22,556 bases of DNA, taken from the NCBI GenBank assembly GCA_963766075.1, contig CAVYAN010000007.1, forward strand, positions 1 to 22,556, in the 5' to 3' direction. A model generated the notes under the pieces. It was not told the DNA's origin. It did not search any database and saw nothing but the letters and a program-made list of their open reading frames with translations. Below are positions 2,509 to 20,898 of the stretch, piece by piece (the stretch's first letter is position 1; each line of letters begins with the position of its first letter). A program made the position numbers and the translations under genes. Origin of the DNA: an uncultured cyanobacterium (GTDB lineage: Bacteria; Cyanobacteriota; Cyanobacteriia; Leptolyngbyales; Leptolyngbyaceae).

Positions 2509-3340
2509 ATGCGATCGCTCAACCTGCCTTCTGGTGCCACCATCCCCGTTCTCGGTCAGGGTACTTGGCGTATGGGCGAGAATCCGCAAGCGCGATCGCA
2601 GGAAATCGCGGCCTTGAAATTTGGCATCGACTTGGGTCTGACCTTAATCGACACCGCCGAAATGTACGGTGAAGGCGGAGCTGAGGAAATTGTCGCCGCC
2701 GCGATTCAGGGGCAGCGATCGCGCCTCTTTCTGGTCAGCAAAGTCTACCCCCACAACGCCACGCGACGGGGCACAATCCAAGCGTGCGAGCGCAGTCTCA
2801 AACGGCTCAAAACCGATTACCTCGACCTGTACCTGTTGCATTGGCGCGGTTCTGTACCCCTCGCCGAAACCTTTGCCGCCTTGCTCGAACTCCGCCAAGC
2901 CGGAAAGATTCGTGATTTTGGCGTCAGCAATTTTGACCCAGATGATTTAGTCGAAGCGCGTCAGTTTGACCACAATCTGACAGCAACCAATCAAGTTCTG
3001 TACAATCTCAGCCGCCGTGGCATTGAATGGGATGTGCTGCCATTGTGTCGGCAGGAAAGGATTCCTGTGATGGCCTATTCCCCGATCGAGCAAGGGCGGT
3101 TGCTGCAAAATCCGGCATTGAGTGCGATCGCTGACGCGCTTAAACGTCACTCCCGCGCAAGTTGCGATCTCATGGCTGCTGCATCAAGACAATGTCGTGG
3201 TGATTCCAAAATCGAGGCAGCGCGATCGCATTGGAGAAAACCATGCGGTATTGGAGATGACGCTGAGTCAAGCTGATTTGGTGGCATTGGATAAGGCATT
3301 TCCGCCGCCTACGCGATCACAACCCCTGGAAATGCTGTAG
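2509..3340 (+). CDS. Aldo/keto reductase, split by a +1 frameshift near 3143
   Basis: 'LGQGTWRMG', 'IDTAEMYG', 'LVSKVYP', 'DYLDLYLLHW' and 'GVSNF' are in frame 1. The C-terminus 'TPAQVAISWLL..VVIPKS' continues in the next frame. Span 832 nt = 3n+1. Confidence 0.9.
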
Positions 3341-5179: not shown

Positions 5180-6373
5180 TTAGGTGAGATCAGGGGGGCG
5201 GAGATTAGTAAAGTTGGTTGCACCGTAATGTCGATCAATCGTTTTGGCACTGGTTCCGGTCCATCTGCCAATAGCCGTACTATTAATATGAGCCTCTACA
5301 CACAAGCTAATGAACGTGTGCCTGCACTGATAACTCTTTCGATATGGAATATTACTCTTCTCCAAGATAGACTGCCACGCTCGGTTTGCAAAATTATGTT
5401 GGTCAAGGAATTTGCCCTTGGGGCTCGGAAATAAAAATCCTTCAGGGTTGTAAATTTCTTCTCTTAAATCATCCAAAATAGCTCTAACTTCTGGTGTCAT
5501 GGGAAAATCTCGCTTACGCTGAGTCTTTAAACCCTCTTTCAGAACTAGACCCTTTTCAGATACAACCACCGACTGCCTAAACTTGACCACAGATTCACCA
5601 ATGTGCTTCCACCGCAACGCAATCGCCTCAGAAGGGCGAGCACCCGTGAAGAAAAGAAATTTTACGTAGTTCGTGTAGTGCTTGTAGTAGCGATCGCTGG
5701 CAAAGCTGGCGATGATCAGGTCACGCTCAGCCTTGGTGAACGGATTGACATCCTCATCTTCAGATACCCCTTTGGGAACTCTGAGCTTCATGGTCAGAAA
5801 AGGATTGTCTTGAGTGAGCCCCTCTTCCACGGCCCAGTTACAGCATGCTTTTAACTGAGTCAAGCACCGCTTAGCGGCATCCGGCGTAAGAGTTGCCAAT
5901 AGATGGTCACGGATAAGCGTGGCATCTTCCAACGATTGGCTCGGAAACCTGCCAATATGATTTTTGTGTTTGGTGAAGTCCTTTGCGTAGGTACTGGGAC
6001 TGACTTGAGGTTTCTTAAACTGCGAATATTTCTCCCAAAGTTCATCCAGGGAGGGTTGGGATTTCGGGGGGGCATTGGGGGAAATTGGGGGAATGGACGA
6101 AACGGTGGTGAGGGAAGCCTTAGGCTTGTATTTGCTGAGGCTCAAATCAACCTCACCGTAGTCAATATCGCGCTGGATCTCCCGCACCTTGTCTCCGACC
6201 CGTTGGCGATTGAGAGGGGTGTCCTCGTACCCCGTGGAAATATAGAAACGCTTCCGCTGGATTTCGCCATTTTCTTCCACGGGATATGAAAAGACGATTT
6301 GCAAGCGCCCCTTTGTGCTTTTGAATTGGACTGAACCCTTACTGGCCTTGGATTGCTTTTCCTTGGAGTACAT
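5180..6373 (-). CDS. Tyrosine recombinase/integrase with N-terminal arm-DNA-binding domain
   Basis: 397 aa with 'FFTGARPSEAIALRW', 'LKTQRKR', 'YQCRHTF' and 'IDRHY'. The N-terminus 'GRLQIVFSY..RKRFYISTG' is typical of cyanobacterial integrases. It lies next to a tRNA fragment. Confidence 0.93.
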   Translation of the reverse strand: MYSKEKQSKASKGSVQFKSTKGRLQIVFSYPVEENGEIQRKRFYISTGYEDTPLNRQRVGDKVREIQRDIDYGEVDLSLSKYKPKASLTTVSSIPPISPNAPPKSQPSLDELWEKYSQFKKPQVSPSTYAKDFTKHKNHIGRFPSQSLEDATLIRDHLLATLTPDAAKRCLTQLKACCNWAVEEGLTQDNPFLTMKLRVPKGVSEDEDVNPFTKAERDLIIASFASDRYYKHYTNYVKFLFFTGARPSEAIALRWKHIGESVVKFRQSVVVSEKGLVLKEGLKTQRKRDFPMTPEVRAILDDLREEIYNPEGFLFPSPKGKFLDQHNFANRAWQSILEKSNIPYRKSYQCRHTFISLCVEAHINSTAIGRWTGTSAKTIDRHYGATNFTNLRPPDLT

Positions 6374-6434: not shown

Positions 6435-6480
6435 ATTCCCCCAATTTTCCCCCAATCTGTCCCCCAAACTGACCCAAACC
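6435..6480. repeat. CCCC(C)AA repeats, candidate integrase arm-type sites
   Basis: Three CCCC(C)AA motifs at ~11-12 bp spacing lie between the integrase start and the att core. Opposite-strand TTGGGGGAA repeats occur inside int at ~6075-6093. Confidence 0.4.
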
Positions 6481-6622: not shown

Positions 6623-6920
6623 CGTAAAACACCTGTACCCATACATCTCTAGCTGAAAAGCTTATGGGCAAAGGCTTTATTGTTTGAACAGATGTACCAA
6701 AATATGCCGAAAAACACTGAGAGATTGTGCAAATTTCGGGAAGAATCTGGGAAGCCCATCACTGGGAGTGTGAATCAATATTTTTCTCTAGGCATCAATA
6801 ACCCCATCAGAGTCCACATTCTTACCTAGAAAACTGCAAGCATGTCAGCAAACACTTTTTTAACGGCTGAAACCTTTACACATCAACGGGTTTACCCTGC
6901 TTGCATTTGTGCAAGCAGGC

Positions 6921-6988
6921 TGTCAGCAAATCAGAAAAATGCAAGCAAATCAGAAAAATGTCAGCAAATCGGGTGAATGCAAGCAAAA
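6921..6988. repeat. Four tandem 19-bp-period repeats, TG(TC/CA)AGCAAA core
   Basis: Units start at 6921, 6940, 6959 and 6978. Extra cores lie at 6835-6852 and 6910, with an inverted one at 6898. Confidence 0.8.
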
Positions 6989-7069: not shown

Positions 7070-7807
7070 ATGGAAATCAACGAAGAACAGCAAACCGACA
7101 ACAACGACCTGAATGTTCAATTGGCAGCGGCGTTAGAGGAAATCGACACGCTCAAAGAAGCCAACCTTTTAGGTGAGAAGCAATTGAGCAAGGCAGTGGC
7201 ACAGATTGAAGCCCTGACGGCTGACACCACCAAAGACGTTAAAGACATCCGTGATGCATACGAATCCCGCTTCCAGGGGCTTACAGCGGCGATCACGAAG
7301 CAAGCCTTTATCAAAGAGCTGGGTGGTGATGCAGAAGTGGCTGATTTTCTCTATGAGAAATACAAGAATCGCTTAGACATGGACACCGATGATTTCTCCA
7401 TCACAGTCCTTTCAGACAAAGGAAAACCTGAGTATGTGCGCGGTGGCCCTAAAACCGTTGCTGACTTTGCCGGGGAAGTAAAAGCGACTCACAAAGGCTT
7501 CTTCCAAGCCCCGGACACCGCAGAGGGAGGCGTGCGCTACATCACCCAGCAGCAAGCCCTCGATGCTTCCTTTCTGCGGCGTGAGGGTATCACGCTTGAT
7601 GCCATGGGTGATGGCAGGGTAGTGATTGATCGGGATGGGTCAAAGACGGGTGCGATCGCAACCAAGCAAGCCCCGACATCTAAGGGAGCGTTGAAAATCA
7701 CCCGCGCTGAAATGCGGAATACCCGCGCCTGGTGTCATCAAAACGGAGTCCCAGCCACCGAATTCTTGAGCAAACTCAACGCCAACGAAATCGCGATTGT
7801 CGATTAA
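7070..7807 (+). CDS. Phage capsid scaffolding-like coiled-coil protein
   Basis: RBS AGAGGA precedes an acidic coiled-coil N-half. 'VLSDKGKP..KTVADFAGEVKATHKGFFQAP..GG' resembles scaffold C-terminal regions. It lies upstream of a terS-like gene. Confidence 0.5.
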   Translation: MEINEEQQTDNNDLNVQLAAALEEIDTLKEANLLGEKQLSKAVAQIEALTADTTKDVKDIRDAYESRFQGLTAAITKQAFIKELGGDAEVADFLYEKYKNRLDMDTDDFSITVLSDKGKPEYVRGGPKTVADFAGEVKATHKGFFQAPDTAEGGVRYITQQQALDASFLRREGITLDAMGDGRVVIDRDGSKTGAIATKQAPTSKGALKITRAEMRNTRAWCHQNGVPATEFLSKLNANEIAIVD

Positions 7808-7848
7808 CCACAAGTTTGTGTGCGTGCTGACGACCTAATAAGTGTCAC

Positions 7849-7895
7849 AAACCCCTAAGCGCTGTCTCGCACACGCAGTGTTCAGGGGGTTTCTT
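7849..7895 (+). terminator. Stem-loop between the scaffold-like and terS-like genes
   Basis: AAACCCCT-AAGCGCTG...CAGTGTT-C-AGGGGGTTT followed by CTTCT. Confidence 0.4.
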
Positions 7896-7917
7896 CTATA
7901 GGATTCAAAAAAAAGCC

Positions 7918-8403
7918 ATGACATTGACTGTGAAGCAAGCTCAGGCGGTGAGCTTGCGCCTACAAGGGTTGAAAGGTTCAGAGATCGCCAAACAACTCAA
8001 GGTAAAAGATGCCACGGTCTACAGGTGGTTCACACTGCCTGAAGTGAAGGCGGCGATCGCAGCGTTAGGGGCAGAGCTTGAGGCGGATTCGGTAGACTCG
8101 CTTAAGGAACTTCGATCCAAGTCTCAACAGCTTGTGCAGCAAGCGCTTACTGTCTTGGGGACAGAACTGAAGACAGCGGAAAGCCTTCCTGAAAAGCTGC
8201 TGGTGACGACTGAAATCTTAAGCTACTACCGAGCGCTTCACCCGGTCCAGAATTCAGCGGCGGCAATCACGGCACAGGCCAAAGTTGAGGACGGTGCGCC
8301 GACTGCCAGCGTAGTTGTCTACATTCCCGACAACGGGCGCGGCGATAGTGCCATTCCAAAGCGGACCCTAGTGGATGCCGGAAACGGTGTTGACTTTTAT
8401 TGA
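7918..8403 (+). CDS. HTH protein, terminase small subunit-like
   Basis: N-terminal HTH 'GSEIAKQLKVKDATVYRW', a helical middle region and a C-terminal 'VVVYIPDNGR' strand motif seen in TerS proteins. Confidence 0.6.
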   Translation: MTLTVKQAQAVSLRLQGLKGSEIAKQLKVKDATVYRWFTLPEVKAAIAALGAELEADSVDSLKELRSKSQQLVQQALTVLGTELKTAESLPEKLLVTTEILSYYRALHPVQNSAAAITAQAKVEDGAPTASVVVYIPDNGRGDSAIPKRTLVDAGNGVDFY

Positions 8404-10219: not shown

Positions 10220-10755
10220 GTCTAACCTTATCCTTTCTCACCCACGAAATCTTCACACGCCACAACAGAACCCCAGAACCCTCATCAGTAAAGGATTCTG
10301 GGGTTTGTTCTCTGTGGTGCGCTAAAGGGGTGTTTTGCTTCAGGTAGAATCCCTCAGACACCATGTCTACCGTGCGTTACAGGGCATTCTCAGAGGGGTG
10401 TTTCTGGGTATTTCCTGGAATGCGTCTTAGTAGGAAGCATCAGTATTAATTCATCCAAAAAAAAAGGTTGTCAAAAGTTGTATCAAGTTGAGACTGACTG
10501 TCTCAAAAACACCCTGGACTAGAAACGGACTACAAAGCAAAAAACCACTCAACTGGCACACAGGTGAAACCTAATAGGCTCATGAGACTGAGATCCGCAA
10601 GATTCAGAGAGCAAAATGCTTGAAACCCTTCACCTGAAAGCTTTTTAGCTTAGTCTTAGTCCGTGGGTCTTCTGCCATCTTAGGCAGAAGTGCAAGTAAG
10701 GTTTCAAACTGCCTCGCCATAAGGGTTTGAGATTTTATTTTGCCTTTTTCTAGTC

Positions 10756-11151
10756 CATTGGTGCAAGCCCAGGTGACAACATAGCGAAAATCCCGCCACT
10801 CTCAGCAGAGAATGATGGGATTTTTGGTCCATCGGTTTGCTCTAAAGTGAAATGCAAATCAGCATCTCTTGCGCCAAAGTGAATCATTCGTACCAAAAAC
10901 CAATGTATAAGCTAAACCTATGCCATAGTCGGACCGGTCTCGCTTATACTTCGTCACCTGGTCTTGCCCCAAGCCTTGAAACCTATACAGGGCAATGGTT
11001 TCAGTTTTGGTCAAAGCACTTAGTGCAAAACCCAAAATCCAAAACCTATACAGGGCAATGGTTTCAGGCATTGGTGCAAGCCCAGGTGACAACATAGCGA
11101 AAATCCCACCACTCTCAGTAGAGAATGATGGGATTTTTGGTACGAATGATT
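10756..11151. repeat. Structured non-coding repeat locus (73-bp direct repeat, inverted related unit, duplicated palindrome)
   Basis: 10756-10828 and 11069-11141 differ at 2 positions. 10882-10899 is the exact reverse complement of 11134-11151. AAACCTATACAGGGCAATGGTTTCAG occurs at 10979 and 11042. Confidence 0.9.
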
Positions 11152-11164
11152 GAATCGGTTCGGT

Positions 11165-11192
11165 ATGTTCCCGTAATCAGTTACGGGAACAT
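11165..11192. terminator. Perfect 12-bp hairpin at the end of the minus-strand operon
   Basis: ATGTTCCCGTAA-TCAG-TTACGGGAACAT overlaps the stop codon of the HicA-like gene. Confidence 0.55.
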
Positions 11193-11943: not shown

Positions 11944-11997
11944 GGCGTTAATAGTTTGATAGTGCTTTTGTGTTGCAGTCTAATTCGTTCTATGCGG

Positions 11998-12132
11998 TTT
12001 GGGGACGTTGGGGACAGCGTTGGGGATGAATCTGGGGATGGGGATGGGGATAGCCTTGGGGATGGCGGGGATACCGTCCCCTGCGTGTCCCCAAGGGTCT
12101 ATCCCCAACGTCCCCAAATCCCCATCCCCAAC
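11998..12132. repeat. Convergent GGGGA/TCCCC repeat array directly downstream of the ATPase gene
   Basis: Eight GGGGA(C/T) units (12001-12072) are followed by six (G/A)TCCCC units (12076-12129). There is a perfect 17-bp inverted repeat at 11998-12014 / 12102-12118. Confidence 0.9.
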
Positions 12133-12135
12133 TTT

Positions 12136-13808
12136 TTACCCCTCTACCCGGAAGGTATCGGCATCAATTCGTGTTAGGCATTTCTGAGCAACCGCCACGG
12201 CTAAAACTTGAGTCAGCTTGTCGCGTTGCCTACAACCATTGCGCTTGCCCCAGTTGCCTTTGATTTGTTCAAAGGTTAGCTCTGTGCCTGCTTTCTCCTG
12301 AATCCAACTCAGGAAATTAGCAACGAGCAAAGCATCCTCTGAGCCGTGGTTTTTTAGGTGTGCGATAACCTTTTCGATGCGGCTATTAGGTACTGGGTTT
12401 TGCGCGGTCGATGTCACTTGCGGGTGGTCAACTTCAGCGCTTTTGTAGTCGGTTACACCCGCCACTTCCCGAACTTTTTCAACCTTAGCCGCAACACATT
12501 TCCTGCCATCCCAGTCAGGCAGGGACAGCCCATCGAGGCTGTAAAAACGGCCTTCGATTTGGACGGTGCGATCGCAGATTTCGGCGGTTGCTGGGTCCAA
12601 GGTTGCCCCTTGAAAGTTGGTGCTTAGTTGCTTGAACAGCCCTGAATCAAACACTAGGCGTTGCCCGTTCCACTCCGACTGAGAGGCCGGGTGGATGAAC
12701 ACATGGGTCAGACTGCCTGTTTTGCAAAAGCTCTTGCCGTGCTGGACCATGTTTGCCGCGATGAACTCAGGCCCGATAGCCCAGACAGACTTACCCCGCT
12801 TCACCCCGGTGCTGTTGCATTGACTCGACAGGGAAGCGATCACCGCATTCAAAGGTTCCAACAAACCCCGGTGCATGTTGGAGATTGCGGCCTGCGCGGG
12901 TGCCTCATCGACAACCAAGATCGCCCCGGTCTGTGCCCAAAAGTCCCGGACCATTTTGATGGATGCTTCAATCACCTGCTTCGCCGTCGGACTGTCCAGC
13001 GACCCCAGGTCGAACCGGATTGATGCCGTGGCATGTTGCCAGTACTCTGCATCTTCGTCTCTGCCCTCCGATGTCCGGGTGTGGCTGAGATTGAGGTGAA
13101 AAGTCTTGATGCCCTTTGAGGCCAGGTAGCGGCTTGCGATCGCAGCTAAGAAACTCTTACCTGTGCGTTGCCCGCCAAAGATGAGCCGATTCTGGTATGG
13201 GTTAGCTAGAAGCACACTCACAGGCCCGTCTTGTGGGGCGATCACTTCAGAGCGGGTGTCATCACCGTAAACCTCCATACCCACACCCACGGCTTGCACC
13301 GGAATTGCCCCTAACTGGGTTTGGATACCCACGGCGGGCGCGACGGCGGGCGCTGTTTTGCCAGACGGGGAAAGGGCAAGCTGCGGGGCATCACCCATCA
13401 CATAGGCGCGGTAAGCCGTTTCCAGTGCGGCGGCAACTTTGCCCAGTGGTTCGCCCTGGTCAACCTTCGTCCACCAGATCCAAGATTTCTGGGTGATCGG
13501 TGAGGAAATCGGCTTCAGCTTGGCGATCGCGCTGGGTGATCCTGTAATTCCAAGCTTGCAATGCCTGCCAACCTGCCAGCACGATCAGGGGTGCCAGGAG
13601 TGGCAAAGTAAAGCCAGACAAGGCCACAATCCCCGCCGCACTGGCAATGCCTACCGCAGCAGTGGTTAGAGGCGATCAGGGTATCTTTGCCCGTCTCAGC
13701 TTCATCCAGGTGGATGATTCTGAGCGCTTCATGGGCATCAGGGATGAAGTCTTGCCGTAGCATTTCGGACGTGATGAGCGTGGCGGGGTTGGGTTCAAAG
13801 CTTCGCAT
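12136..13808 (-). CDS. Membrane-anchored P-loop ATPase (FtsK/TraB/coupling-protein-like), ~556 aa after repairing two frameshifts
   Basis: Walker A 'IFGGQRTGKS' and Walker B 'ILVVDE'. RBS GAGAGG precedes the ATG at 13808. Shifts near 13670 and 13468 reveal the hydrophobic segment 'LTTAAVGIASAAGIVALSGFTLPLLAPLIVLAGW'. A small C-terminal domain follows a linker. Confidence 0.7.
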
Positions 13809-13864
13809 AAAATACCTCTCAGTTCAGTGAAAAGAAGGGGGCATCGTTGCCCCCAGATTGACGG

Positions 13865-14609
13865 TTAGTTGTTGCTGGAATTGTGGTCAGGCACAGTGAC
13901 GGAAGTACGGCGCACAGAGGCTTCTAGGGACTGAATGAACTCTAGTTCATCGCGGGATAGCAGCTTTTCCGCACAAGTGTTCGTAAGGCGTATCCCGACC
14001 TCTACCCCAAACATGCCGACTAGAGCCAGCAGCACCCCTGACCAGCTCACCCCAGTTGCACCCAGGATGCCACCGCCAACAATCAGCACGAAGAATTCCA
14101 GGGCATAGCAGACCCACCGAATCGCCTCAAAGGTCATCTCCTGAGACTTCTCGCGGTTCCGATAGCGCTTGAACTTGTTCCGAGCTACCGGGTTCAGTTC
14201 GTGATTCACCACGGGGATTTCTACTGGCTTGCGTTGGAGTCTGACTAGTCCGGCGATGTTTGCCTTCAAATTCAGATTGTCGAACGCGGGCATAATTTCT
14301 AGAGCTTGGATCACACCCCAACTGAGCAACCCAGCGGCAAAGGAACCCGTTGCAGCAGACCAGGACGTGACATTTATAATCCCGGCAAACACGGTGAATG
14401 AGCCACAGAGTAGCGTTGCCCCACGCCAACTAACCACCCACTGAAAGACCTCTTTAAGACCGATCAGGAGGTCATCAAAGTCAATCCGGCCATTGTGATT
14501 CTTGTCTACCACATCAGCCCACGGGCGCTTGGGGTCAGTCTTTGCGGTTTCCTTTGCCTTGGCGATCATTGGTGCGTTGGGTGGAACGGGAATTAGTTTG
14601 AAAAGCCAT
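13865..14609 (-). CDS. Multi-pass membrane protein (frameshift near 14542)
   Basis: RBS AGGAAA then MAFQTNSRS..., joined to 'KTDPKRPW' by removing one A. It has about four hydrophobic segments and an EF-hand-like 'DKNHNGRIDFDD'. Confidence 0.7.
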
Positions 14610-14630
14610 GGTGTATTTCCTATTGAGGGT

Positions 14631-15028
14631 TTACGGTGGAACGGGCGATGTGCTGGGGATTGGTGCGGAATCCACGGGTGTGGAAGCGGTAGGTGCAAAC
14701 CTGGAAGCGAGAATCCGATTCAGCACTTCAGGCGGGGCAGAGCGGATGTAATGACCTTGGCATCGGCGGTCACTTCAGCGGTGTTGCCCTGGTCATCACA
14801 GACCAGAGTGCCAGGGGTCAAAGGGATTCCGGGTTTGCTATAGGCGCGATACCAAGGGTTAATCGTGCCTGTCATCCTTTGGCAAGTGGCGGCGCGTTGT
14901 TGGGCGATTGTGGCGGCGCTGGATACCTGATTCCAGGCGACGATGCGGGGATTTGCGCACATAGACAAGGCTTGCACCGAGAACACGGCCCCAAGGCCCA
15001 ACAGGCAGCGCTGTGAGGTTCTGTTCAT
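14631..15028 (-). CDS. Exported or membrane-anchored hypothetical protein (frameshift near 14750)
   Basis: N-terminal hydrophobic segment and 'GTLVCDDQGNTAEV'. Adding one base extends it to a Pro/Ser-rich tail that ends just before the next RBS. Confidence 0.6.
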
Positions 15029-15411
15029 GCCGCTACCTCTGGCAATTCGTCCCGAAACCCTTCGTAGACTGAATCCTCATCAAGGGAATAGATGCCTTCC
15101 AGGATTTGATGTCCCAGTGCGATCGCTAACTGGATAGCGGGCAATGGTTCTGCAAAGTCTAGAAATTCCTCGATCATCTTGACCGCATCGCATTCGTGAA
15201 AATCGAATGGGTCGGTCATCTCGATAAATTCGTAAAAGCTGCTGCGGTCAACTTCTTCCACCGACGCGCAGTAGTTCACCCAATCCCCGATAACCATGAT
15301 TAGCTGGCTTTTCTCGGATAGGGGCAAGCTCTCTAGGCGCGGCCCGTAGGCGTTGGCGGCTTCTGCAAAATCAGCGTCGTAGGTGGATAGCAGACTGTTT
15401 TTCGTTACCAT
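15025..15411 (-). CDS. Highly acidic hypothetical protein
   Basis: 128 aa with 27 D/E versus 6 K/R by manual count. RBS GAGG; stop overlaps the next start. Confidence 0.7.
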   Translation of the reverse strand: MVTKNSLLSTYDADFAEAANAYGPRLESLPLSEKSQLIMVIGDWVNYCASVEEVDRSSFYEFIEMTDPFDFHECDAVKMIEEFLDFAEPLPAIQLAIALGHQILEGIYSLDEDSVYEGFRDELPEVAA

Positions 15412-15420
15412 TGGAATACC

Positions 15421-15735
15421 TCAAAGTGTTGATAGTTCGATGTTCTGGGGTGCTAAGCCTGCCTGTGATTGGTAGTCGGGGCAGGCTTTTGCATTGATGC
15501 ACGGGAATGGTCTAGAGATGGAAAACAAGTCACGGGCAACCTCAAAACCCTCTAGCTCCAACCATTCGATGACCCAATCGGTTTCAGTGCCAGACAGCGG
15601 CCCGTCTACTTGTGGATCGAACAAATCGGCGTGACTGGCAATCCGCCATAGGGCATCGGCGCGGCCACTGGGGCTGATGGAGCGGTTGTAGTGGGTTACT
15701 TGCCGTTGGACGTAATCGGGGGTGTAAGCCTTCAT
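15421..15735 (-). CDS. Hypothetical protein
   Basis: 104 aa, RBS AGGAG. Confidence 0.65.
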   Translation of the reverse strand: MKAYTPDYVQRQVTHYNRSISPSGRADALWRIASHADLFDPQVDGPLSGTETDWVIEWLELEGFEVARDLFSISRPFPCINAKACPDYQSQAGLAPQNIELSTL

Positions 15736-15759: not shown

Positions 15760-16039
15760 CTAAAGTCCTTCAATCGGCGGTCTGGGCTTCTTGGCAGTAC
15801 TGGGCAGTGCTGTGACACTAACGGGCGCTATCGAGTCATTTGGAACAGGTTTAGGCGGGTTAGTGTCACTAACGGGCGCTATCGGGATGTTTTGTCCTGT
15901 TAGTAAACTGGATAGCGTCACTACCGTGCCGATTGATGAGGTATTCAAGTAAAAACGAGGGTTCAAGGTTTGCTTGGTCGGAGAGGGCATAGAGGCGTTG
16001 CCGTGCCCTCTCGCTTAGCCTGATTCTGGGTTCTGCCAT
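15760..16039 (-). CDS. ParR-like ribbon-helix-helix protein (frameshift near 15910; start not in the ORF track)
   Basis: The ATG overlaps the ParM stop (TGATG) and reads MAEPRIRLSERARQRLYALSDQANLEPSFLLEYLINRHG. Removing one C joins it to a Pro-rich tail ending 'KKPRPPIEGL'. As written it stops at 15869 (56 aa). Confidence 0.65.
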
Positions 16040-17022
16040 CACAACCCCATGCCTAAAACGGTGATGTCCTGCGGTTGGGGCACAACCTTAAACCGTCCTT
16101 TGGTGCGGTGCTCCATGGACTCAGCCAGAGAGGCAGAGCCACCCACTAGAAGCACTTCACCCAGATCCGACAGGTAGGGTTGCCATGCGGCAGTAGCACT
16201 AGTGCGGATGTCATCGATCCAGGTATCGCGGCATGAGGCAAAGTGAGTCACAAAGCTGGAACCGTTACGCCCAATCTTGAACGAACCGTTTTCGATGCCG
16301 TCCATGATTTGAGATAGGTCAGCACTGATGCCCGTTTCCTTGAGCAACCGTGCCTGAATCGCTTGAGCCAGCTTGTTTGTACCGGGCAAGGTGATAGAGG
16401 CATCGCGCAGATTCACACCCTCAGCAGAGTAGAGCCGACCGCTAGAAGTCCCACCGCCAAAGTCGATCACCCCGTTGACGGCATCGTCAGCCCACTGGTA
16501 AAGCCCATTGGTAACCCCATACAGGTAAGCGGCGGTGCTTTCCTCCACTAGAACCACATGGGCGATAGTGACAATCAGGGCTTGACCGTTGCGGGTGTAT
16601 TCGTGGGTGCCGGTCAGTGCTTTGCCTGCTGCGATCGCATCTGGGTTGCGGGTATCGGGTACGGCAATCTTCAGGGTTTCTACTCGGAATGCCGAATGCC
16701 CAAAAGGTGCTTCCAGCGCGGCGAAAACGGACTCAGACAGCATCGATAGCTTGCCTTTGTCGAATGCACTGCGGTGCCCTGATTGAGCTTTAGCGGCTTG
16801 CCCAATGGCGTAGGTTTGGCCGTCACGCTCAATGATGACGGTATCGGCACCGGGCGCGGGTACATCTTCCCAGCTTGTATCGAAATGGCGGATCACATGG
16901 GGCATCCGTATCAAGTCCCCATTCACTGAAATGTACTCTAGGTAGCGGTTCCCGGCGTTTAGCAAGACTTCAGGGCGAATCTTGGCGGTCCAAGAAAGTG
17001 GTTTTTGAAGTGGGGTCATCAT
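16039..17022 (-). CDS. parM: ParM/StbA-family actin-like ATPase
   Basis: Actin-fold motifs 'LNAGNR', 'YAIGQAA', 'VEESTAAY', 'VIDFGGGTS' and 'LLVGGSA'. Confidence 0.85.
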   Translation of the reverse strand: MMTPLQKPLSWTAKIRPEVLLNAGNRYLEYISVNGDLIRMPHVIRHFDTSWEDVPAPGADTVIIERDGQTYAIGQAAKAQSGHRSAFDKGKLSMLSESVFAALEAPFGHSAFRVETLKIAVPDTRNPDAIAAGKALTGTHEYTRNGQALIVTIAHVVLVEESTAAYLYGVTNGLYQWADDAVNGVIDFGGGTSSGRLYSAEGVNLRDASITLPGTNKLAQAIQARLLKETGISADLSQIMDGIENGSFKIGRNGSSFVTHFASCRDTWIDDIRTSATAAWQPYLSDLGEVLLVGGSASLAESMEHRTKGRFKVVPQPQDITVLGMGL

Positions 17023-18137: not shown

Positions 18138-18380
18138 ATGACTATGTGTGACGCAACGATGCCCCGAAGTACCCGTGCTTTTCGATTAGACGATCGCTTG
18201 TTGGAAGCGCTGGATCGGCTTGCAAAAAAGGGGAATATATCAGCCAATAAATACGTTGAAAATCTTCTGATGAGTCATGCTAAGCAATTGGGTGAAATCC
18301 CAATGGATACAGAGCCGTTAGGGGATCCCCGTGGTGGCAAGCGTGACGGATCCGGGCGGAAGTCTAAGCCTGAGGAATAA
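18138..18380 (+). CDS. CopG/Arc-like ribbon-helix-helix regulator
   Basis: 'TRAFRLDDRLLEALDRLAKKGNISANKYVENLL' fits the RHH pattern. The gene is divergent from the operon. Confidence 0.75.
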   Translation: MTMCDATMPRSTRAFRLDDRLLEALDRLAKKGNISANKYVENLLMSHAKQLGEIPMDTEPLGDPRGGKRDGSGRKSKPEE

Positions 18381-18761: not shown

Positions 18762-19332
18762 TTAGGCGACCTCTTCAAACGGCTCATACTGTGGATTCCC
18801 CTGGTAGCCGGGAAAATCGTATTGCCACTTTTCAATCAGCATCCGTTGCCCGCTGCCAGGGTGTTTGACGGCGAACAGGGAACGGTCCAGGGCTTGATGC
18901 AAGCACGGTTGGACCAAGGGGACTATTTTGCCGTCTTCAAAGTTGCACGGTTTCCACTCGAATCCACAAGTGGTGTCCCAGATCCAGCATTGCGGGTTGT
19001 TTTGGGGCTGATTGGCCAAAAGCACAATCGGAAGTTTGCCCCCGGAGCGGGAAATATCGGGCATCGTCGAAATGCTCTTCATGCCGTCCAATCGTGCTCA
19101 GTTCGATCCCGTAGGTTTTCTTGTTCAGGGCGATCGCAAAATCCGGTGCCCAATAGCCGCTAGGGTCTGGCACGAACAAGGGATTTTGTGCAGCGTTCGG
19201 ATTGGCTCTGAGGTGGTCCATGTTCCGAGGGTGGATCATGGAAATGCCTTGAGCGGTGAAAAAGTCTTGCCAATCTACCCGGTAGCGCGTCCGGTTTTCC
19301 TCTCCAACATAACGGTCTGGCAATGTGAGCAT
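18762..19332 (-). CDS. PD-(D/E)xK-like nuclease domain protein (frameshift near 19090)
   Basis: Motif 'YWAPDFAIALNKKTYGIELS'. Two overlapping ORFs join into ~189 aa (571 nt = 3n+1). RBS AGGAG. Confidence 0.5.
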
Positions 19333-19372: not shown

Positions 19373-19948
19373 TCACGAGGGTTTCGATAAAATCTGCCTA
19401 CAAAAATCTTTGGCTGACATCTGGACCCAGTTACGCCGATCCTGTGCGACCGGAAACCAGGGTAATCCCTCCGGGTCAAGCTTGGAAGTCATGGCCGCAA
19501 CCCGTTCAGCACTGGCAAGGTCACCCCGAAAAAGTTTGCCGTCACGGCCCCCAACTTGGCAGAGCCGTGCATTTACGGTGCGATCGCCTTTCAGCCTGTC
19601 TATCAGGGCATAAATCGGGATGGCATCCACAGTAGGGACAACCGGGGCAGAATCTTTGAAAAAAGTTTGGGCACCTTTACGCACTTTTCGCCCGGATGTG
19701 TCCAACGGGACCGGGGTGGGTATAGGCTCTAACCGCTCCAATATCGCCTTGATTTGGCTCTGGAGCGTTCCCAAGACATGCGGCACGGATGTTCGCCCAG
19801 ACTTCACCAGATACCGATCAGACGCGGCTTGTAGCAGCAGTTCTGACAAGGAAACACCTAGACTTTGGGCAACCTCGGATAGTGCTTTTTTAGCCGCGAT
19901 CGGTACGTAAATTTTGACTATGGCAGTCGAGTTTTTCTGAATCGGCAT
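19373..19948 (-). CDS. RHH/MobC-like DNA-binding protein, copy A (191 aa)
   Basis: N-terminal 'IVKIYVPIAAKKALSEVAQSLGVSLSELLLQAA' and C-terminal 'TSKLDPEGLPW'. Confidence 0.65.
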   Translation of the reverse strand: MPIQKNSTAIVKIYVPIAAKKALSEVAQSLGVSLSELLLQAASDRYLVKSGRTSVPHVLGTLQSQIKAILERLEPIPTPVPLDTSGRKVRKGAQTFFKDSAPVVPTVDAIPIYALIDRLKGDRTVNARLCQVGGRDGKLFRGDLASAERVAAMTSKLDPEGLPWFPVAQDRRNWVQMSAKDFCRQILSKPS

Positions 19949-20898
19949 GAGGTTCTGGTGGGTCTACCAGAAGTCCCCCAAGGAAGGCAAACCAGTCCAA
20001 AAACAGTCCACCCGTTAGTGGCCCCACCGAATCCACATCGTCTCAATTTCTCAGACTCCTGAGGCCCAAACTGTAGAGACCCAAATGGGCTTTAAGGGAA
20101 CCTGAATTAACCACCCAGTGGATATTAAAGTTTAATCGGGATGACAGGATTCGAACCTGCGGCATCCTGCTCCCAAAGCAGGCGCGCTACCAAGCTGCGC
20201 TACATCCCGTTGCAGAAATTGCTCATTAAAGATAACACACCTTGCCCCCACCCGGGCAGAAAGCCGAAGAAATTGAAACGCTGTGGATTCGGTGGGTCCA
20301 CTAAAGAGTGGACTGTTTTTGGACTGGTTCGCCTTCCTTGGGGCACTTCTGGTAGACCCACCAGAACCTCATGCCGATTCAGAAAAACTCGACTGCCATA
20401 GTTAAAATTTACGTACCGATCGCGGCTAAAAAAGCACTATCCGAGGTTGCCCAAAGTCTAGATGTGTCCCTGTCAGAACTGCTGCTACAAGCCGCGTCTG
20501 ATCGGTATCTGGTGAAGTCTGGGCGAACATCCGTGCCGCATGTCTTGGGAACTCTCCAAAGCCAAATCAAGGCGATATTGGAGCGATTAGAGCCTATGCC
20601 CACCTCGGCCCCGTTGGACACATCCGGGCGAAAAGTGCGAAAAGGTGCCCAAACTTTTTTCAAAGATTCCACCCCGGTTGCCCCTACTGTGAATGCCATC
20701 TCGATTTATGCCCTGATAGACAGGCTGAAAGGCGATCGCACCGTAAATGCACGGCTCTGCCAAGTTGGGGGCCGTGACGGCAAACTTTTTCGGGGTGACC
20801 TCGCCAGTGCTGAACGGGTTGCGACCATGACTTCCAAGCTTGACCCGGAGGGATTACCCTGGTTTCCGGTCGCACAGGATCGGCGTAACTGGGTCCAG
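19421..20898. repeat. ~630-bp inverted duplication (19421-20051 / ~20268-20898) flanking tRNA-Pro
   Basis: The two gene copies and ~100 bp upstream of each are reverse complements with scattered substitutions. Confidence 0.9.
20136..20209 (-). tRNA. trnP: tRNA-Pro(TGG)
   Basis: CGGGATGTAGCGCAGCTTGGTAGCGCGCCTGCTTTGGGAGCAGGATGCCGCAGGTTCGAATCCTGTCATCCCGA forms a full cloverleaf with anticodon loop TTTGGGA. Confidence 0.97.

Follow-up and report, generated by a model that had tools for sequence, protein, structure and literature searches.

Does a membrane-anchored ATPase, encoded next to a short repeat array in an uncultured cyanobacterium of the Leptolyngbyaceae, serve to pass DNA from cell to cell? 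A preliminary description, made from the letters and open reading frames of the locus, had likened it to the TraB/clt system of Streptomyces plasmids and suggested a relaxase-free transfer or spreading module. The DNA analysed here (the window) is a stretch of 22,556 nucleotides that makes up the entire contig C7 of a 5.05-Mb genome assembly, 85% complete. The assembly contains 6,932 GCGATCGC sites, as is usual in cyanobacteria.

Genomic setting of the locus

The window encodes a tyrosine integrase, scaffold-like, terS-like and ParM-like genes, and tRNA-Pro, with two IS701-like copies at its edges. A copy of the sequence around tRNA-Pro adjoins a chromosomal gene on contig C6, and the window is therefore a mobile region integrated at this tRNA gene. 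Its features relevant to the present question are as follows.

5180–6373, minus strand: tyrosine integrase (Pfam and PHROGs), of the same element or a tandem one
11949–11985, minus strand: conserved box of ~40 bp right after the array (profile from 17 other loci)
11998–12132, no strand assigned: repeat array of 8 GGGGA and 6 TCCCC cores, candidate docking site of the ATPase tail (core count, fold)
12136–12393, minus strand: winged helix predicted at the C-terminus of the ATPase, a tail of type A (AF2, folded alone, pLDDT 90.5)
12511–13248, minus strand: ATPase core of FtsK/HerA fold, holding both Walker motifs, A and B (AF2 model, structure comparison)
13466–13808, minus strand: N-terminal portion of the ATPase, including its membrane anchor, read in two other frames with breaks near 13670 and 13466 (tblastn, P0003–P0006)
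13865–14609, minus strand: multi-pass membrane protein of no known family, with a frameshift in the first ~20 codons and a homolog-supported start at 14609
14720–15028, minus strand: small putative exported or single-anchor protein (homologs in the matching operon slot)
15025–15735, minus strand: two small ORFs of 128 and 104 aa, the former found in 14 loci
15760–16039, minus strand: ParR-like small gene behind the actin gene, frameshifted (homologs; labelled from its position)
16039–17022, minus strand: ParM-like actin ATPase (PHROG 691 'partition protein', E 1e-13; Pfam MreB-like_C below cut-off)
18138–18380, plus strand: divergent ribbon-helix-helix (RHH) regulator (Pfam RHH_1, E 0.0018, below cut-off; homologs L016, L039, L051)
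20136–20209, minus strand: tRNA-Pro(TGG), integration target (147-bp copy of 20050–20196 on contig C6)

On contig C6 (G000 contig C6:3669–4632) the att copy is followed by DNA 87% like window positions 10831–11184 (region 10755–11184), which suggests, from sequence likeness, tandem related elements at tRNA-Pro. An inverted duplication of 631 bp (96%; 19421–20051 and 20268–20898) lies on both sides of the tRNA gene, with a NikA-like RHH gene inside each copy, and the scaffold-like and terS-like genes are at 7070–8403. G5/C5-rich inverted repeats (6062–6091 and 6435–6475) and a 19-bp tandem repeat (6919–6987) near the integrase start are possible arm-type or regulator sites. An aldo-keto reductase (2509–3340) is seemingly divided between two frames, and an overlapping ORF pair at 18762–19332 may be a single broken gene. 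As had been stated previously, no relaxase, VirB4 or T4SS gene was found among 27 window ORFs searched against Pfam or 23 searched against PHROGs; a lone NikA-like Pfam match at 19948–19373 (E 0.0024) fell below the cut-off.

An anchored ATPase with a FtsK/HerA fold

The ATPase gene is split into three pieces in three frames (13808–13671, 13669–13466 and 13467–12136), each of which matches the intact homologs P0003–P0006 in tblastn searches, so both frameshifts lie in the sequence as assembled. The membrane anchor is in the middle piece (hydropathy 2.28), and an N-terminal hydropathy peak is common to this piece and all full-length homologs listed. Walker A (FGGQRTGKS) and Walker B (ILVVDE) motifs are both present, so that homolog matches, hydropathy and motifs agree on the anchored ATPase first read from the sequence after repair of two frameshifts. 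The family comprises 238 relatives at the 50% cluster level, and K103 (Walker K) and E187 (Walker E) are invariant across 137 sequences.

Sequence searches placed the protein in no described family. Neither the window protein at E 0.1 nor 22 family members matched PF01580 (FtsK_SpoIIIE), the ATPase and the multi-pass protein had no Pfam, NCBIfam or PHROG family matches, and no solved structure was found for the ATPase by sequence search. In the ESM Atlas, P0004 led mostly to unnamed cyanobacterial clusters and P0159 to nothing usable. For the AF2 model of the ATPase (pLDDT 85.8), structure comparison matched the core to VirB4 (Z 15.8, rmsd 3.7, 205 aligned), HerA (Z 14.4), the STIV2 packaging NTPase B204 (Z 13.0), TcpA (Z 12.7) and FtsK (Z 11.7), with TrwB likewise among the matches; in structure the modelled core is more distant from FtsK than from VirB4 and HerA. 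The tail matched DpnI (Z 8.7, rmsd 3.1, 82 aligned), SelB (Z 8.5) and Fur (Z 8.3), where Z values of 7–8.7 denote a shared fold only and the tail folded is of type A. The FtsK/HerA-type motor and C-terminal winged helix anticipated earlier are thus both recovered in the models, the latter for type A. The likeness to TraB extends to the anchor, the winged helix and the adjacent array, but not to family membership, as the lack of a PF01580 match means that by Pfam the protein belongs to no TraB/FtsK family.

The main and a second subfamily of these ATPases are related with an HHalign probability of 97.7%. Motifs of the FtsK/HerA superfamily include an arginine finger (GR) and a Q ending strand 4. 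The second subfamily carries MGRS...LVSQ, equivalent to the FtsK/HerA-type GR and Q, and the main subfamily has G-x-K-R without a clear GR finger and a P in place of the Q.

Operon partners and decay of the window's copy

The ATPase is the last gene of a conserved operon that also encodes a ParM-like actin, an exported protein and a multi-pass membrane protein. A search with the multi-pass protein gave 31 matches, the window's own counted, and its gene is immediately 5' of the ATPase in most loci; homologs of the exported gene were found at E 1e-13 to 1e-16. Across 59 loci, the ATPase usually closes an operon that also contains one gene for a membrane protein of 2–5 helices and another whose product is exported or has a single anchor. 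The two upstream partners originally proposed therefore both have homologs, but in the window the multi-pass gene is frameshifted and the N-terminus of the 'exported' protein is under the hydropathy threshold; moreover, the ParM-like actin, a regular partner, had been left out. A variant operon in L099–L105 and L150 has the ATPase followed by a membrane gene and then an M23 peptidase.

Four frameshifts fall within ~4 kb of the window's operon (two in the ATPase, one each in the multi-pass and ParR-like genes), compared with 2 broken genes among 25 controls (29 kb). On this comparison decay of the operon is likelier than assembly error, and sequencing error across the whole assembly is disfavoured by the same control rate and by intact rpoB and rpoC2. 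Judging by its reading frames, the copy in the window has probably decayed to the point of no longer functioning.

The repeat array and its relatives

The array begins 6 nt past the ATPase stop codon and contains 14 cores at 12001–12129, on the plus strand 8 GGGGA followed by 6 TCCCC, with a consensus unit TGGGGAY. The earlier account of 14 repeats at the ATPase stop holds for number and place, but these are two opposed blocks and not direct copies. The array is the sole cluster of at least 8 such cores per 140 bp in the assembly, which rules out a dispersed cyanobacterial repeat of the STRR type, and it matched neither terminators nor Rfam RNAs. It is predicted to fold into a single long imperfect hairpin (z -5.5, 0/200 shuffles); across 27 arrays, arm complementarity beyond the motif, as for a possible cruciform, has a median z of -1.6, with 10 arrays below -2, for a unit fixed at 7 nt where the true one may be longer.

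Behind the arrays of many relatives, whatever the tail type or motor subfamily, the ~40-bp box recurs. Of 28 loci held out, 11 match its profile (best E 1e-8), and the window's own match, although weak (E 8.4 genome-wide), lies at the expected place. The box may act as a promoter or offer another site for protein binding.

Arrays were scored as a 6-mer present at least 5 times, in both orientations, at most 220 nt from the stop, in 56 homologs that remained of 63 distinct ORFs from fetched loci after 7 were dropped (open ends, <230 nt downstream, or a frameshifted piece). In agreement with the expectation that homologs bear downstream arrays, 34 of 48 tail-bearing homologs (window included) have one, versus 0 of 8 tail-less homologs; the control rate of the rule is 78 of 2175 long ORFs in the window's genome. 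Second-subfamily ATPases have an array in 10 of 25 scored loci (28 fetched). The rule failed for the other 14 tail-bearing homologs and 15 second-subfamily loci, for L167 and for one complete element (in G223). One Leptolyngbyaceae MAG has six near-identical ATPase copies (L043–L048) that lack both tail and array and sit in other surroundings, beside DNA polymerase and exonuclease-like genes, and L104, L105 and the G223 element combine another tail with absence of an array.

Co-variation of motif and tail

At least five tail types are dispersed across the core tree, for which a motif filter kept 46 rows and excluded type E and partial ORFs. In the 34 loci with an array, similar motifs go with similar tails (partial rho 0.30, 0/2000 permutations, a count that overstates co-variation because the loci are related by kinship) as opposed to core identity (partial rho 0.007, 872/2000 permutations). 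None of 14 pairs with cores at least 70% identical and unrelated tails has a common motif, and L057 and L062, with cores 96% identical, are unlike in both tail and motif. CGTTAC is common to L017 and L041/L051/L052 at 21–22% core identity, and L017 and L041 (21%) have the same tail type. Held-out loci agree: L111 and L146 (type D) carry GCTACA, L139 (type C) carries GGGTCA, and L162 (type A) carries TAGGGAC together with a helix EQIK..WAKR comparable to EQIK..WGKR in the window, while L160/L161 have GCGGT (5 and 4 copies) and L165/L168 have AGGACA. Among the later loci L166 has a new motif, and L164 is outside the scored set. When the GGGAC and GCGGT groups of type A are compared, fixed differences occupy 11 of the 23 positions in the helix-turn-helix versus 7 of 62 elsewhere. 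The motif thus co-varies with the C-terminal domain, as the preliminary description would have it.

Tail and array are adjacent and can be swapped as one cassette, which alone yields co-variation at the level of types. The part that such linkage leaves unexplained is the apparent retention of one motif across tails only ~50% alike. Taken as a pattern in the sequences, this makes it very likely that each tail would bind its own array as a cognate site.

Complete elements and distribution

Four elements bounded by att repeats were recovered, of 16.7 kb (tRNA-Ala) and 18.9 kb (tRNA-His) in G374, 29.7 kb (tRNA-Lys) in G360 and 21.6 kb (tRNA-Val) in G223. All four encode an integrase-like gene, a primase-helicase-type gene and an actin, and three, all but that in G223, have an array. 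The G374 element carries integrase, excisionase, primase-helicase and terS genes; both elements scanned against PHROGs (G374, G360) have terS-like or tail-like genes, and that of G360 (L093:12174–19291) encodes scaffold-, terS-, tape-measure-like (SLT, M23) and tail-fibre-like genes.

Contrary to the possibility that homologous loci consistently carry a relaxase and T4SS, relaxases were found near 4 of 32 loci of at least 12 kb (2 of 19 array-positive), and none of the four complete elements matched three relaxase families or a VirB4-type profile. The MOBP/MOBF relaxases found lie near a minority of loci, later ones being L139, L140/L141 and L144/L145. Neighbouring genes were represented by 237 proteins (up to two from each cluster, plus singletons of at least 180 aa), and none of these matched VirB4, TraG or a coupling protein. 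A Replic_Relax search gave no match anywhere and was equally silent on controls.

The main subfamily occurs in 19 of 401 genomes of the class, across four families, and the second in 30 of 401; a phylum-wide sample gave 2 of 301 genomes. Plasmid records gave one weak match. Named records are mostly Leptolyngbyales, an order of filamentous cyanobacteria.

Comparison with known systems

Streptomyces TraB/TraA, clt and the role of helix 3 of the winged helix are treated in PMC3429521, PMC4447253 and PMC3583192, and TraB homologs are given as confined to Actinobacteria in PMC3548315, which also treats MPF-C. The predicted arrangement of N-terminal anchor, C-terminal winged helix (type A) and adjacent cognate array resembles TraB, and as far as anatomy goes the TraB/clt analogy has good support. 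Unlike the Streptomyces TraB/TraA-clt systems (pSVH1, pWTY27, pIJ101, pJV1) and AICEs, the cyanobacterial protein has no PF01580 match and a core nearer to VirB4/HerA, no modelled folded domain lies between anchor and core, and the family has at least five exchangeable tail types. Its arrays are two opposed blocks whereas clt consists mainly of direct 8-mers, and it is accompanied by a ParM-like actin and a primase-helicase instead of a rolling-circle Rep, in a diderm host. In our reading the ATPase is TraB/clt-like in its working, yet outside the TraB family.

Thermus thermophilus TdtA (ICETh1, transjugation) is described in PMC5365140 as donating DNA free of a T4SS. It is likewise a HerA-type ATPase of a small tRNA-integrated element in a diderm, but that paper reports for it no detected DNA-binding domain and names a NurA nuclease and a restriction enzyme as partners. 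The cyanobacterial ATPase additionally has a membrane anchor and a predicted winged helix, with a candidate cognate array beside its gene. With type IV coupling proteins and VirB4 (TrwB, TcpA; cyanobacterial MPF-C) it has the superfamily fold and N-terminal anchor in common; it differs in that no VirB4/T4SS neighbours were recognised, relaxases are unlinked, and the tail is predicted to be sequence-specific with its own array. PICI-like phage satellites carry a tRNA-targeting integrase, excisionase, primase-helicase and terS-like gene, as do the elements described here (17–30 kb), but no such satellite is known to encode a ParM-like actin or an operon that joins a membrane ATPase to an array.

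Proposed mechanism and alternatives

We posit that cyanobacterial integrative elements and plasmids carry in this module a self-addressed DNA translocase working in the manner of TraB/clt, a reading towards which the evidence tips moderately. The element would first excise and replicate, integrase, att repeats and primase-helicase being seen in complete relatives. The anchored ATPase, with its modelled FtsK/HerA fold, would assemble into a ring as expected of its superfamily, and its winged helix, as the co-variation strongly indicates, would dock on the 6–8-bp repeats behind its own gene. The ATPase would then pump the double-stranded circle through a membrane channel formed with the multi-pass and exported proteins, without a relaxase. 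The likely role of the ParM-like actin is to segregate the circle or deliver it. The weakest step is the destination, which by analogy would be an adjacent cell, either in the same filament or in a different one; such cell-to-cell transfer of element DNA is, on balance, somewhat favoured. No outer-membrane channel was recognised, although cyanobacteria have an outer membrane, and with terS-like and tail-like genes in complete elements, phage-helped spread is an available alternative.

The module might instead act in partition or tethering only, with a centromere-like array, an ATPase that holds or clears the circle at the septum, an actin that segregates it and no transfer between unrelated cells. 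This we consider unlikely. In 20 of 59 loci there is a ParM-like gene, as a rule within the ATPase operon, and two repeat blocks facing opposite ways would suit a motor that loads in both directions, as known for FtsK/KOPS. However, the actin owns a small downstream ParR-like gene and shifts independently of the ATPase, being 3' of it in L050, L080 and L090; compared with ParMRC, the array is 4 kb from the actin and tracks the ATPase tail. In addition, the exported partner and the peptidoglycan hydrolases (M23, lysozyme) in ATPase neighbourhoods point to crossing of the envelope.

It is quite improbable that the ATPase is a packaging or extrusion motor of phage satellites or vesicle-forming elements, for which the array would be the packaging signal of a membrane-bound particle. 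The high rank of STIV2 B204 among the fold matches and the terS-, scaffold- and tape-measure-like genes carried by the window and by elements of G374 and G360 are in keeping with such a role. Against it, no homolog was found in viral contigs (IMG/VR, pattern-based) or 50,697 phage records (one query), element ORFs scanned against PHROGs include no capsid, portal or large terminase, and the module also occurs on plasmid contigs where no head genes were recognised.

We give very little weight to the ATPase being a coupling protein that joins the element to a host MPF-C T4SS and a relaxase in cis or trans, with the array as part of oriT. VirB4 is the top fold match and TcpA and TrwB match too, relaxases occur near a minority of loci and outside the elements in the four complete host genomes, and the window has its weak NikA-like match; but all four att-bounded elements are devoid of a relaxase, the window's genome (85% complete) has no match to the three relaxase families, and the VirB4-type profile, a model that may miss MPF-C, gave nothing above cut-off in 5 genomes.

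Least credible, and most improbable, is a tail that binds the array or an RNA hairpin to control the box, or an array that merely co-travels: the box is straight behind the array, 10 of 27 arrays have additional arm complementarity and the SelB and Z-alpha winged helices bind RNA, yet the motif is constant across tails ~50% alike with cores ~20% identical, tail-less genes have no array, terminator and Rfam searches were negative, and repression needs no conserved membrane motor.

Significance for filamentous cyanobacteria

In the literature searched, with subscription journals and supplementary mobile-element tables outside its scope, no description of this ATPase family was found. Conjugation of dsDNA by a single motor has been described in mycelial Actinobacteria. 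A 2025 review (PMC12282955) presents cyanobacterial conjugation systems as hypothetical, with functional studies lacking. Somewhat short of an even chance, we tentatively propose that filamentous cyanobacteria possess a second system for relaxase-free dsDNA transfer, assembled independently of the first and comprising an unannotated FtsK/HerA family with swappable DNA-reading tails, each addressed to its own bipartite array, membrane partners and an actin. Small complete relaxase-free elements in closed cyanobacterial genomes, with exact predicted binding sites, make movement of DNA between filament cells directly testable, and the natural tail swaps are a ready protein-DNA specificity code. 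If the proposal is true, integrative elements would travel within a filament and from one filament to the next in a diderm host, the counterpart of what TraB does in the Streptomyces mycelium, pairs of tail and motif would be a readable recognition code, and the elements could serve as native gene-delivery tools for hard-to-transform filamentous strains.
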